Shown: in pieces, positions 4,113 to 20,513 of the stretch | How positions within the stretch are numbered: position 1 is the first letter of the stretch | Layout of the letters: each line of letters begins with the position of its first letter | Origin: a virus | Virus record (IMG/VR): IMGVR_UViG_3300021364_003460 | Location: 64,001-128,000 of that record | Length of the DNA: 64,000 nucleotides | Reading direction: 5' to 3' (one strand) | Made by a program: the position numbers and the translations under genes | Notes under the pieces: model-generated | Seen by the model: only the letters and a program-made list of their open reading frames with translations | Databases searched by the model: none | Told to the model about the DNA's origin: nothing

Positions 4113-5582
4113 TTGAATATGCTTCAACTTACAGTTGGAAAGGAAGTAGATTACTTTTACATAACTAATGCTTCTGATTTAATAGAGGCAGTTAACAATA
4201 TTGAAAAAGCATTAGAATCTACAGATAAAATACTTGCAGTAGATACAGAAACCTATCCTTTATATAACATTTATGGAGATAGAGCTGATTTTAGAGACCC
4301 ACACACAACAGCTACTAGATTAATACAGGTCAATGTATCTTATAATAATACTCCTTATATCTTTGACTTCTTAAAAATAGGTAGAGAAGGTTTTCAACCT
4401 TTAGTTGATTTATTAATGAGGAAAGATATAAGAAAAGTAGGTCACAATTTTAAGTATGATATTAAGCAACTTAAAGCAAGTTTAAATGTGTGGCTACCTA
4501 ACTCCTGGTGTACTTTGGTGATGGCAGCTAGAGTTAATGTATGTACTGGATTCAGAGCAGGTCAAATGAGAGGTAACTCTTTAAAAGCATTAGCTAGAGA
4601 TTACTTTGGTATTGATTTATCTAAAACAGAACAAAAATCAGACTGGTCTAATCCTAATCTTGCTTCTGAACAGTTAGAATATGCTGCTTTAGATGTTAGT
4701 AAAGGAAAAAGCCATACTCAACTAAAGCATTCTGTACTGCTAGATTTATATTATCTATTTCACAATCTACTTTATACTCCTGCACCTAAAGGTTTTGGAG
4801 GTCACTGTAAACTTAAAGACTTTAAAGAACCTATTGAAGTAGACCAAGCAGCTAACTCTATACTTGCTAAGATTGAGTATAATGGAATGCCAGTATCTAA
4901 GAAGATGCTAGACCTAATTTACTCTACAGCTAGTAAAGAAGTAGAAGAATTAAAGTTGTATCTTTGTAAGAGCTTTGGTTTACCTATTCAACAAGCACTT
5001 GATTATACAGATGAAGGGGCTAAAGTAATCACTATTCTTAGTGAGGAAACTCAAAAGACTCTCAATAATCCTAAGAAACTAGTACAATTAGTTAATAAGA
5101 CTTTGAAGAAACAAGGGATTGAGTTAACTAATGTATTGTCAGATTCACTAGAGGAAGCTTTGAAGAAACTAAAAGCTAAAGAGTCTGAAGAAGAGCCTGA
5201 TGAAGAAGAGGAGTTTTATTGGGAAGATGAGGAGGAAAGCGTAGAGTGGAATATAGATTTAATAGACAAATTAATTAAGTATAAAGAGTTAAGTAAATTA
5301 GTTAGTATTGACTATAGAAAGTTGATTAACCCTGTTACTGGTAGAGTTCATAGTAGTTATCAATGTATTGGTGCTAGTACAGGTAGAATGAGTAGTGGAG
5401 GTAAAGGTAGCTTTAATGTGCAACAGATTTCGAGTAAAACAGTAGTTATAGAAATAGAAGAAACTGATCATCCTTATATCAGTTCTTCTCAAATAAACTT
5501 TACGCAGCTTTCTGACTTAGAAGATAATCTTGAGATTGATAAAACTGTTGAGCTTTGTCATACTTCCTCTGCATATAAATAG
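4113..5582 (+). CDS. polA: DNA polymerase family A, N-terminal piece (3'-5' exonuclease, thumb, start of palm)
   Basis: ExoI AVDTETY, ExoII VGHNFKYD, ExoIII YAALD; TGRVH...ASTGRMSS...NVQQI; TTG start in track, ATG at 4119. Confidence 0.92.
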   Translation: MNMLQLTVGKEVDYFYITNASDLIEAVNNIEKALESTDKILAVDTETYPLYNIYGDRADFRDPHTTATRLIQVNVSYNNTPYIFDFLKIGREGFQPLVDLLMRKDIRKVGHNFKYDIKQLKASLNVWLPNSWCTLVMAARVNVCTGFRAGQMRGNSLKALARDYFGIDLSKTEQKSDWSNPNLASEQLEYAALDVSKGKSHTQLKHSVLLDLYYLFHNLLYTPAPKGFGGHCKLKDFKEPIEVDQAANSILAKIEYNGMPVSKKMLDLIYSTASKEVEELKLYLCKSFGLPIQQALDYTDEGAKVITILSEETQKTLNNPKKLVQLVNKTLKKQGIELTNVLSDSLEEALKKLKAKESEEEPDEEEEFYWEDEEESVEWNIDLIDKLIKYKELSKLVSIDYRKLINPVTGRVHSSYQCIGASTGRMSSGGKGSFNVQQISSKTVVIEIEETDHPYISSSQINFTQLSDLEDNLEIDKTVELCHTSSAYK

Positions 5583-6381
5583 TAGCACCTACATACAAAT
5601 AATCTAAAAGTTTATTTAAATTAAACCTACCACCAAATCTTATATCAGAAGTATACTCATTACCATTTTTATAAGCAACAACTGAAGAAGTTATATTATG
5701 TTTTTCTAATAAGTAATCTTTAAGTTGATTACAAAATAAACTAGAACTAGTGATGCTTACTCCTGTTTTGTTAAGATCAGTTAAATTATTTATTGTTTTA
5801 GGAATAATTATACATCCGTCTCCATCTAAATAACCTCTTACAAAGTGTCTCATTAAATCAGCAGGAACTCCAATTGGCATTTCTAAGATTTTAGATTTTG
5901 CAGGAATACACCCTTTTGCAATAAGAGATTCTACAAAAGGCTTGTTGTATATACTTAATGTAGTAAAAGGGTTGCCGTTCTTTTCTCCATAACCTGCTGT
6001 TTTATAATAGGTTCTTATATCGCAATTAGATTCTAAACAATCTCTTAAATTATACAACAAGTATTCATCAGATTGAGTTAAGGTTATAGCAAACTTATGA
6101 GTATACTTATGTATGCTAGTATTTCCATCTGCAAAAATTAAACCTAAAAAGTAAGCTTTCTCTTCAGAATCTATTACTTCAAAATAAGTGTAGTTTAAAG
6201 TATGCCAACTACTAGCATCCTGATAACCCTTAATCTTAATACCTCTTCTTTTTAATACACCTAATATAGCTTGAGGAGAAACATTATATTCCCTTGACAA
6301 TTCTACAGACCTTTTTCCAGCTAAATAACTATTTACAATATCAATCTTTTGTTGATCATTCAATCTATTAGGTATTCCCAT
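5500..6381 (-). CDS. LAGLIDADG homing endonuclease with N-terminal HTH, antisense within split polA
   Basis: two motifs AYFLGLIFADG and FVRGYLDGDG; HTH-like SVELSREYNVSPQAI. Confidence 0.92.
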   Translation of the reverse strand: MGIPNRLNDQQKIDIVNSYLAGKRSVELSREYNVSPQAILGVLKRRGIKIKGYQDASSWHTLNYTYFEVIDSEEKAYFLGLIFADGNTSIHKYTHKFAITLTQSDEYLLYNLRDCLESNCDIRTYYKTAGYGEKNGNPFTTLSIYNKPFVESLIAKGCIPAKSKILEMPIGVPADLMRHFVRGYLDGDGCIIIPKTINNLTDLNKTGVSITSSSLFCNQLKDYLLEKHNITSSVVAYKNGNEYTSDIRFGGRFNLNKLLDYLYVGATIYMQRKYDKAQQFYQSQDYLLSQKAA

Positions 6382-6447
6382 AGTACATTTAAATTAAACA
6401 TTAAAGTGTACTTTACATAGAACAAAGTAATATTAAATAGGCAATTA

Positions 6448-7461
6448 ATGAAAAAGAAAACAAGAGTAAGTTTAAGACATGCTTTTGTAGCCCCTAAAGG
6501 TATGCTTATTGCTAGTAGCGATTTCTCTGCTCAGGAATTTCGCAATGCAGGGGCATTATCTAAAGATGTAAACATAGCTAAAATTTACAAACTAGAAAAA
6601 GAATATATAGATAAAATAAGACCTAAACCCATTAACCCTTTAACTAATAAATCTTATGATGACCCTGCCTGTGACCCTCATATTCAAGCAGCAGTACCTT
6701 TAGACAATGAAGTTAAAAGAATAGTATTAGAAGAACCTTGGAGAGCTATAAAAGAAGACCTACATGTAGGACCTTGGAGGCAGAAAGGTAAGGTAATGAA
6801 TTACAGACTTATTTACTTATGTTCTGCTATGTCTTTAGCTCCAGAATTAGGAGTAAGTAAAGAAGAAGCTCAAGCTTTTATAGATAAATATTTCTCATAT
6901 CCTGATGGATTCTATGGTTTAGGTGAATATTTAAAATCAACAGCTCTTATAGGTAGTGAAGTTAGATGGGTTAGAACTGCTACAGGAGAACTTATTTTTG
7001 TGAATGAATCAAACAGCAAGGGTTTATCTGACTCAGGTGCAGCAAGTCGTAAAAGTGTAAATAGTCCAAATCAAGGTTTAGGTTCTACTCAAAAAAAGAT
7101 AGCTTTAGCTTTAGCTGATAAAAAGTTTACTAAATTAAATGATAAATATAGAAATGTAATTAGAGGAAGAGAGGGTGTACTAGGAGGAGAGATCCATGAT
7201 GAGTCGTTAGCTTTTATACCAGGAGAATGTTACTTCCACTTAGTACCTGATGAAAAGTTAAATGAAAAATATAATACTGATATCTATGTTAAACCTCAGG
7301 TAGAGTTTGATGAAAATATAGGGGAACATGCTTTAGCTTTAGAATATGGAGCAGCCTTAAAAAGTTCTATGGAAGAAGCAATGCAAGAAACCTTTGATAT
7401 TATAGGAACTGATATTCCTCCAGGAAGTTCAGTAGAAGTAGCTCCTTGGTGGATTCACTAG
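6448..7461 (+). CDS. polA: DNA polymerase family A, C-terminal piece (motifs A, B, C)
   Basis: LRHAFVAP, motif A SDFSAQEFR, motif B RQKGKVMNYRLIY, motif C EIHDE. Confidence 0.9.
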   Translation: MKKKTRVSLRHAFVAPKGMLIASSDFSAQEFRNAGALSKDVNIAKIYKLEKEYIDKIRPKPINPLTNKSYDDPACDPHIQAAVPLDNEVKRIVLEEPWRAIKEDLHVGPWRQKGKVMNYRLIYLCSAMSLAPELGVSKEEAQAFIDKYFSYPDGFYGLGEYLKSTALIGSEVRWVRTATGELIFVNESNSKGLSDSGAASRKSVNSPNQGLGSTQKKIALALADKKFTKLNDKYRNVIRGREGVLGGEIHDESLAFIPGECYFHLVPDEKLNEKYNTDIYVKPQVEFDENIGEHALALEYGAALKSSMEEAMQETFDIIGTDIPPGSSVEVAPWWIH

Positions 7462-19178: not shown

Positions 19179-20513
19179 AGATTAAACAGTTACCTACAAA
19201 ATTAAGTAACTAATATAGTCTCATAATAATTACTCAATAAATAGTAATTATTATGAATAGAAAAGTAAATATTGAAGAACTATTAGGTTTGTGGAATAAA
19301 GGACTTACTAGAGAACAAATTGCTAAAATTTTAAAAGTACATGTAGCTACAGTAAGTAAACATTTAAATTCTAAATTAGATTATATAGAGAGAAGACATT
19401 CTAAAGATAAACTTATTCATCTAGATATGAATAAAGTTAAAGAGTTAAGAGAAAAAGGTTACACAAGTAAAGAAATAGAAACAGAACTAAATATTTCTGA
19501 TAGTTGTTTGTATTTAGCAGGGATGTCAAAATTTCCTTTTAAAAGAAAAGGAATACACACTTACTCAAAAGATTTAGAATTCTTTAATAAAATAGACTCT
19601 TCTGAAAAAGCATATATAATTGGATTTTTACTTACTGATGGTTCAATAAATAAAAGAGGAAATATATCAATAGAAATTAAATCAGAAGATGATTATATTC
19701 TACAAAGTATAAGAGATTTAATCTGCCCTAATAAACCTATACCTAAATCTATCAGAACAAGAACAAGAGGAAAATACACTTGGACTTCTGAAACAAGTAG
19801 ATTAAATATAAAATCTGTAGAGTATATTCAACCCCTATCTAATTTTGGTATTGTACCTAATAAAACTTACAAAGACATACAATTACCAAAATTAGATGAA
19901 AAATATATGCCTGATTTAATAAGAGGTATATTTGATGGAGATGGTTCTATCTGGTCAAATAAAACAAGAAATAGAGGGCATGCTGTTAACTTTACAGGCA
20001 ATTATGTTTTACTAAAAGATATTTTTGATTACTTAAAATCTAACAATATTATAAAAGCCAATACTTCTGTAAAGAAAAAACCTCATCAGGCTGATTCCTA
20101 TTTTGTTTTCTCTTCAAAGAAAGATGTAATTAACTTTGGTAAATATATTTATTCCACAAATTGTTCTTTATATCTAAAAAGAAAATACTTAAAATTTGTA
20201 GATGCAGGTTTGCCTGTTAACTCCATGAATTGCTGGGATAACTTGAAGGCTAGTTAACTACAACATAATCTGTAAAGGTAAGTGTGAATGTTTGAAAATA
20301 ACTAGTTATAAGTCAATCAGCAGCCAAGCTGCCAAGGAATTGGTAGAAGGTTCAACGCATAGTACAAGGAGTCCCAACACTTAATATGTAAGTAGTGGAT
20401 GGTAAAGTACCAAGAGTGTGGAGATTTACTTTAAAAAGTAAATAAGATATATGCTGAACTACTAGGTGACTAGTAGAACTAAAAGATAAAAAGCTTTTAG
20501 GATAACATAATTG
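19179..20513 (+). mobile_element. group I intron in the Walker A of dnaX, endonuclease ORF in the P1 loop
   Basis: exon end ACAGGU pairs with IGS GCCUGU (20212-17) via U.G; P3 CUCCAU/GUGGAG; P4 UGCUGG/UCAGCA; P7 GCAUA (20357-61)/UAUGC (20450-54); P8 and P9 hairpins; omega-G 20513; splicing restores GNSGTG|KS. Confidence 0.9.
19253..20257 (+). CDS. intron-encoded LAGLIDADG homing endonuclease with HTH repeats
   Basis: AYIIGFLLTDG and LIRGIFDGDG motifs. Confidence 0.92.
   Translation: MNRKVNIEELLGLWNKGLTREQIAKILKVHVATVSKHLNSKLDYIERRHSKDKLIHLDMNKVKELREKGYTSKEIETELNISDSCLYLAGMSKFPFKRKGIHTYSKDLEFFNKIDSSEKAYIIGFLLTDGSINKRGNISIEIKSEDDYILQSIRDLICPNKPIPKSIRTRTRGKYTWTSETSRLNIKSVEYIQPLSNFGIVPNKTYKDIQLPKLDEKYMPDLIRGIFDGDGSIWSNKTRNRGHAVNFTGNYVLLKDIFDYLKSNNIIKANTSVKKKPHQADSYFVFSSKKDVINFGKYIYSTNCSLYLKRKYLKFVDAGLPVNSMNCWDNLKAS

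Follow-up and report, generated by a model that had tools for sequence, protein, structure and literature searches.

The stretch of DNA analysed here (the window, 64,000 nucleotides, bases 64001–128000 of the 190,865-bp record IMGVR_UViG_3300021364_003460) comes from a lake cyanophage-like virus, and it carries a family A DNA polymerase (PolA) in two open reading frames (ORFs) with a LAGLIDADG endonuclease gene on the opposite strand in the gap between them. We consider it probable that the two ORFs make a functional two-subunit polymerase, and that the split allele (tail of the N piece, endonuclease gene, leader and C half) spreads by recombination; we infer both the function and the homing from comparison with related sequences. 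The two polymerase ORFs and the free-standing antisense LAGLIDADG gene, first noticed from the letters alone (hereafter the sequence-only reading), are confirmed by the ORF list and by Pfam.

The N and C ORFs are in separate frames, 866 nt apart. Pfam finds DNA_pol_A_exo1 (PF01612, 6e-22) and DNA_pol_A (PF00476, profile positions 30–135) in the N piece, DNA_pol_A again in the C piece (PF00476, profile positions 134–336), and LAGLIDADG_3 (PF14528, 1e-10) together with LAGLIDADG_1 (PF00961) in the middle ORF. Thumb, palm and fingers, which a family A polymerase holds in one chain, are here not in one polypeptide: the adjacent ORFs sum to one protein, the break falls inside a domain, and the gene in the gap has its own start and stop. 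Both the exonuclease and the polymerase motifs of a Klenow-like proofreading enzyme are present. The exonuclease motifs of the N piece (Exo I DTE, Exo II NFKYD, Exo III YAALD) are unchanging across the alignment of relatives, in which D42, E44, Y188, D192 and R423 (487-aa numbering) are invariant, and in the C piece D25, E30, R111, K115, H250 and D251 are invariant among relatives and E252 is conserved; the C piece can also be aligned to Klenow. An intact polA elsewhere in the genome, which would speak against a two-piece enzyme, was looked for and none was found in the 190,865-bp record, where PF00476 and the intact protein of a close relative match only the N and C pieces.

That relative, P0162, is the nearest to the N piece; it is intact (796 aa, from a 190,726-bp contig), and it provided the alignment to an uninterrupted homologue that had been proposed as a check. 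It aligns to both pieces, and only 15 of its residues, 453–467, have no match in the window. The break noted in the sequence-only reading is real, but homology does not stop at NVQQI as was thought: it runs on to 5477 (..IEIEETDHPY) and picks up at 6466 (VSLRHAF). With the protein mapped onto the record, the N core is 83% identical to P0162 residues 1–452.

In the mechanism that we propose, the phage would make its sole family A polymerase as two polypeptides that assemble without a covalent join, namely an N subunit of ~56 kDa with the proofreading exonuclease, thumb and motifs 1–2, and a C subunit of ~38 kDa with palm, fingers and motifs A, B and C. The break would lie in the loop of a clade-specific linker, between motif 2 and the strand preceding motif A, and the N-tail strand TVVIEIE (acidic), the C-leader strand KKKTRVSL (basic) and the large thumb–palm interface would probably re-form the fold. 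Comparison lends strong support to such a non-covalent two-chain PolA, as already suggested from the letters: the break is widespread, both halves are under purifying selection in the Ma-LMM01 lineage, the catalytic motifs are kept, and no other PolA was found in the genome. The features of the locus are collected in Table 1.

Table 1. Features of the split polA locus, in window coordinates
Feature	Position	Strand	Description	Source
N ORF	4113-5582	+	489 aa; 487 aa from ATG 4119	ORF list
PolA N core	4113..5432	+	3'-5' exonuclease, thumb, motif 1 (STGRMSS), motif 2 (NVQQIS)	
Proximal N tail	5433..5477	+	SKTVVIEIEETDHPY; 15 residues, homologous to the first predicted linker strand and loop start of intact relatives	
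Distal N tail and stop	5478..5582	+	ISSSQINFTQLSDLEDNLEIDKTVELCHTSSAYK; without counterpart in the intact protein; mostly disordered by prediction	
Endonuclease ORF	5500-6381	-	293 aa	ORF list, Pfam
Spacer	6382..6447	.	66 nt, A/T-rich; endonuclease gene and C piece start at its two ends, in opposite directions	
C ORF	6448-7461	+	337 aa	ORF list
C-piece leader	6448..6465	+	MKKKTR; net charge +4; without counterpart in the intact relative	
PolA C core	6466..7461	+	second linker strand, RHAF, motif A (DFSAQE), motif B (RQKGKVMNYRLIY), motif C (HDE), C-terminus ..WWIH	

Position of the break and the residues around it

The distance from motif 2 (NLQNIP) to the RxxF strand is ~8–10 residues in Klenow and Taq, the spacing assumed in the sequence-only reading, but intact members of the window's own phage clade have a linker of ~35–40 residues there. 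In the AlphaFold model of P0162 (pLDDT 93, pTM 0.92; Foldseek matches to apPOL, Aquifex Pol I and Klenow), this linker is predicted as a strand (441–446), a loop (447–462) and a second strand (463–468), with pLDDT of 87–95. The unmatched residues 453–467 take in part of the loop and the greater part of the second strand; the C leader of the window corresponds to that strand by position only. On this model, the break maps to the loop between the two predicted strands, described as a surface hairpin loop, and the first strand (TVVIEIE, acidic) would be retained by the N tail. When the N piece is modelled alone, its body is well predicted and strand 441–446 is kept at moderate confidence, and pLDDT falls below 50 at residues 452–460 and 474–487.

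The N piece likely starts at ATG 4119, with TTG 4113 as the earliest possible start. Its acidic tail had been taken as a gain, partly antisense to the endonuclease, and the antisense part stands: the endonuclease gene, on the opposite strand, shares its 3' end with the last 83 nt of the N ORF (5500–5582), and because these are antisense to the endonuclease C-terminus YMQRKYDK, which is conserved in homologues, the last 27 N codons are insertion-derived. In the proposed mechanism, the insertion would have supplied these codons and the stop codon of the N ORF. The first ~15 tail residues, on the other hand, are by their homology ancestral linker rather than gain, although the window version SKTVVIEIEETDHPY has turned acidic relative to the intact linker SKASILIKYFLSLDPY.

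The C piece begins MKKKTRVSLRHAF and ends in a C-terminus, ..WWIH, that is clade-specific. Its leader is basic, as had been observed; it stands in place of ..DKEIWQL.. of the intact form, and its charge reads +5 if the following R10 is included. In split forms, mean net charge is -1.4 over the first 14 residues of the N tail and +1.7 over the C leader, with exceptions, and the first strand of intact linkers has a net charge mostly of 0 to +2, with two outside this range (-2, +3). The spacer before the C piece presumably holds the start signals of both the endonuclease gene and the C piece. A hairpin in it is weak and not significant (z-score -0.9), and the promoter and terminator scans, with promoter-like matches at chance level, were uninformative. 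A Shine-Dalgarno core precedes only 14 of the window's 53 large ORFs, so that the lack of one ahead of the C piece is nothing unusual in this phage.

The same break in related phages

The closest records in the phage collection are the Microcystis phages Ma-LMM01 and MaMV, at ~35% identity. In Ma-LMM01, gp180 (annotated '3'-5' exonuclease') ends ..NAQQISNVELMVDIEEDRLFEDN and gp178 (annotated 'DNA polymerase') starts MTKIKMNSRFAL, across a gap of 119 nt without an endonuclease gene, and the same layout is found in MaMV relatives and in six relatives from IMG/VR. Both halves show dN/dS of 0.08–0.14 in Ma-LMM01-type loci, indicating purifying selection. An intact enzyme of 699 aa, with ..SVQQMSGKVVTLKDGRKTSLRG.. 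at the break position, is encoded by the Microcoleus phage My-WqHQDG, and in one locus from IMG/VR (L041) the N stop overlaps the C start in the letters ATGA.

Small ORFs occur at the break in some of these phages. Ma-LMM01 gp179 (L001 3745–3900) is a 51-aa third-frame ORF overlapping the N stop and the C start; ORFs of this type are conserved in MaMV-like contigs, with dN/dS of 0.18–0.53 on very few sites and no Pfam match. A second split-PolA clade (L086–L091) has a conserved ORF of 70–120 aa between the pieces (L086 5760–6050, L087 5712–6068, L088 5728–5940, L090 3970–4230), with weak, sub-threshold winged-helix Pfam matches in L087 and L088 only; it recalls the 'small unknown ORF' between the split DNA polymerase genes of OM43 phages (PMC10580990).

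To gauge how common the break is, homologues of the C piece were gathered in an exhaustive profile-free search and clustered at 50% identity, and their N-termini inspected. Stand-alone C pieces, with a start Met few residues before the RxxF strand, make up at least 34 clusters, and intact forms ~11; the N-piece search gave more than 20 N pieces that end 13–28 residues after motif 2. On the C-domain tree, obtained like the other trees here by a quick search on mosaic genes, split forms are scattered among intact ones, with at least eight state changes and strongly supported split/intact sister pairs (P0021/P0026 at 98, P0036/P0037 at 99). With the same cut in so many related phages, the two-piece enzyme very probably works.

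The family also carries other interruptions. An ORF-less insert of ~500 nt lies in motif A of the C piece, between DFSS and QELR, in the Ma-LMM01-like locus L014 (6436–7000) and also in L015, L039, L040 and L042; in L014 it matches Rfam RF00028 (group I intron) at E = 8e-8 (6759–7000) and the HEARO-like RF02033 at E = 4e-4 (6529–6724). Large inteins with endonuclease domains (..VHN|C junctions) occur before C-DFS of motif A (P0014, P0019, P0041) and in motif B (P0024, P0047), and P0014 and P0019 are split C pieces too. Proteins that end ..VH right before DE of motif C (P0009–P0013, P0020, P0164, P0166, P0171, P0176–P0179) point to a third interruption site. The truncated C piece of L087 is followed by an antisense LAGLIDADG_2 gene (6780–7370, minus strand).

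Origin of the split allele and alternative readings

The endonuclease has an N-terminal helix-turn-helix-like region followed by two LAGLIDADG motifs (LGLIFADGN, RGYLDGDGC) in one chain. Both keep their acidic catalytic residues, with A84-D85-G86 and D186-G187-D188-G189 invariant among homologues, and by sequence the gene looks intact. It is related to enzymes of Staphylococcus, Bacillus and crAss-like phages that are either free-standing or encoded in introns; close homologues, 75% and 59% identical, are found in related large contigs, and the remaining homologues are at most 39% identical. A sequence search gave no relative in the PDB. The window holds a LAGLIDADG paralogue, 29% identical, at 19457–20194 in the dnaX region. 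The search for target-site duplications at the locus gave chance-level matches only. A 19-nt imperfect inverted repeat (79% complementary) pairs 5401–5419, in the motif 2 coding region, with 6398–6416, in the spacer before the C piece; roughly estimated, chance alone would give several such pairs in a stretch so rich in A/T.

The two pieces differ in their closest relatives. The intact P0162 is 85% identical to the window in the N core and 49% in the C piece; the split contig c231334 (P0168 + P0006) is 66% and 88% identical, and the split contig c8821 (P0172 + P0005) 67% and 83%. In a sliding-window comparison, the last 40 residues of the tail region are 95% identical to the split P0163 and P0168 versus 50% to P0162, and the N body is also mosaic along its own length. 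In an N-body tree built without the tail, all five split forms of the window's tail family group with intact genes at support of 98–100 (window + P0162 + P0171 at 100; P0168 + P0179 + P0180 at 100; P0172 + P0167 + P0170 at 98). Since the nearest N bodies in the crown group are intact, the split state seems to have arrived with the block that now holds the endonuclease gene. In the window, P0163 and P0168, the junction is accompanied by the distal tail that overlaps the endonuclease gene. The proximal tail is common to P0165 and P0172 too, which end differently (..SSSQLNYAVSF), so the contents of the gap differ while the split persists.

These patterns are most simply read as the transfer of a block, made up of junction, endonuclease gene and C half, into intact polA genes, and the identities are consistent with co-conversion by homing. 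In mechanistic terms, one recombining block would comprise the split junction, the endonuclease gene and the C half linked to them; it would move most likely by homing with co-conversion, and on entering the intact polA of a related phage it would turn this gene into the two-gene version. A bolder form of this idea, which we advance only tentatively, is a mobile 'fission cassette' (acidic tail and stop, antisense LAGLIDADG gene, start and basic leader, foreign C half) that could convert an intact essential PolA into a working two-subunit enzyme in one homing event, with the hairpin loop as a recurrent fission and fusion point across a large phage polymerase clade. The endonuclease is not established as the cause of the split: the break point is widely used without any endonuclease, and in this lineage recombination seems to have brought in the split allele along with the endonuclease gene and a C half of foreign origin.

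The alternative closest to ours, which we regard as unlikely though worth serious attention, keeps the functional two-piece PolA but makes the endonuclease gene a later passenger in an existing gap, and the mosaic a product of ordinary recombination between co-infecting phages rather than homing. The frequency of the break without an endonuclease fits this well, as do the different gap contents of P0165 and P0172 behind a shared proximal tail, the mosaicism within the N body, and a gene family crowded with other mobile elements. It accounts less readily for a distal tail that overlaps the endonuclease gene and goes with the junction in three split forms, for the close endonuclease homologues in related large contigs, and for the intact state of the nearest crown-group N bodies, by which the split would have come with the endonuclease-containing block.

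We give very little credence to inactivation of polA by the endonuclease insertion, with the ORFs as decaying remnants and replication left to a host polymerase or another phage polymerase. The distal N tail does resemble read-through into foreign sequence and is disordered by prediction; yet both ORFs are full length with every catalytic residue present, and identity to relatives remains at 83–88% in the C piece and 66–85% in the N piece. Split forms are frequent and of long standing, and in the Ma-LMM01 phages they are under purifying selection; Ma-LMM01, which has this split, is a lytic phage in culture, and the window's genome has no other PF00476-type polymerase.

A group I intron with an antisense endonuclease ORF, whose splicing would restore a single polA mRNA and a one-chain enzyme, is hardly credible. 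Phage polA is a classic intron host (SPO1, Bastille, as cited in PMC10580990), the Ma-LMM01-like relatives have a group I intron in the same gene, though in motif A, and a reported LAGLIDADG-bearing dnaX group I intron in the same genome escapes Rfam. Between polA-homologous codons, however, at most ~22 nt and 84 nt (~106 nt) lie outside the antisense endonuclease ORF, and this leaves no room for a group I core, in line with the sequence-only reading; no P3–P9 core was found flanking the ORF. Rfam gave no match at gathering threshold in the whole window, nor to RF00028 (Intron_gpI) at E ≤ 10 over 5200–6700, and a control on the dnaX intron region gave none either, even at E ≤ 10, while the L014 insert served as positive control. 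Furthermore, the break also occurs where there is no space for an intron (the ATGA overlap in L041) or only 119 nt (Ma-LMM01), and dozens of lineages keep both the start Met and the stop at the break.

Joining of the halves by a split intein after translation, or ribosomal bypass during translation, can practically be dismissed, and both were rejected from the sequence: the proximal tail is an extein-like linker homologous to P0162, the C leader has six residues and no HN-C/S/T junction, no N-intein or C-intein half is present (as already noted from the letters), and we know of no precedent for an 866-nt bypass with an opposite-strand gene inside. Split inteins with an endonuclease gene in between do occur in fractured genes (PMC2677866), and true inteins sit in motifs A and B of relatives.

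Several points weigh against a functional two-subunit PolA whose split allele spreads by homing, as we favour it. All evidence for function is comparative, and the strand-to-strand pairing of the hairpin is read from predicted secondary structure only. Charge complementarity between the two tails, as suggested in the sequence-only reading, is marked in the window and in Ma-LMM01 but is only a trend among split forms, not a rule. The Rfam negative for an intron is weak, since the intron reported in dnaX of the same genome was missed too. The discordance between N and C pieces could stem from ordinary modular recombination rather than homing, and DNA of close relatives was not found in scans of viral, metagenome and genome collections.

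Relation to known fractured genes and significance

Phage polA genes are known to hold endonuclease-bearing group I introns, for example in SPO1, Bastille, LUZ24 and phiL7. The host gene family and the class of selfish endonuclease are shared with the window; those introns, however, are spliced at the RNA level, and the window gap has no room for a ribozyme core. Friedrich and colleagues are said to have described, in 2007, how nrdA of Aeromonas phage Aeh1 is split by the free-standing HNH endonuclease gene mobE. As in that system (Crona et al. 2011, PMC3045599), an essential gene lies here in two neighbouring parts on either side of a free-standing endonuclease gene, with no intron or intein found, and new C- and N-terminal tails, part of them insertion-derived, appear at the break. 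The Aeh1 fragments assemble non-covalently, and the NrdA tails that arose from the mobE insertion are required for activity (PMC3045599). Unlike Aeh1, the host gene encodes PolA and not a ribonucleotide reductase, the endonuclease is a LAGLIDADG enzyme on the opposite strand and not HNH, the window tail is partly ancestral linker, the split allele seems to occur on several gene backgrounds, and assembly and activity are predictions.

Among polymerases, T4-related Aeromonas phages have a two-piece PolB, gp43A/gp43B, one with a GIY-YIG gene in the gap (Petrov and Karam, as cited in PMC2677866). There too, a replicative polymerase is made from two genes with the break within the polymerase domain; going by that secondary account, it differs in polymerase family (B instead of A), break point, endonuclease family and orientation. 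Dassa et al. 2009 (PMC2677866) reported genes fractured by split inteins with an intervening endonuclease gene, and also noted gene fracture without inteins. The order of gene half, endonuclease gene and gene half is the same in the window, but the window has no intein halves, so that no protein trans-splicing is expected. Ma-LMM01 gp180/gp178 share the position of the linker break, unlike the window in having a gap without an endonuclease gene; PMC3201878, which names Ma-LMM01 with DNA polymerase, does not describe the two as halves of one enzyme. At the level of annotation, split DNA polymerases are also reported in OM43 phages, in two ORFs with a small ORF between (PMC10580990), and in an uncultured marine cyanophage lineage (bioRxiv 10.1101/325100). 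Both have a gap without an endonuclease gene of the window's type, and they are likened to it by the split alone, not by break position. A 2026 preprint describes a split polymerase in a chimallivirus.

Gene fracture by free-standing endonuclease genes, and split phage DNA polymerases, are thus already in print. New with respect to known fractures are PolA as the host enzyme, an antisense LAGLIDADG gene, a defined structural break point, and evidence of the spread of a split allele. Family A polymerases would join the short list of essential phage enzymes that survive a cut by a selfish endonuclease gene, and the annotation of Ma-LMM01 can be corrected, since the 'exonuclease' gp180 and the 'DNA polymerase' gp178 together make up a single enzyme. 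The locus offers a natural, evolution-tested thumb/palm split point in a Klenow-like polymerase, of interest for enzyme engineering and for the study of domain docking. The comparative data also make two ideas testable: that the tails at the break serve as handles for assembly, in the manner of Aeh1 NrdA, and that an endonuclease carries a ready-made split allele into intact genes. Should the fission cassette prove true, subunit boundaries of replicative enzymes would be regularly gained and lost through selfish endonucleases.

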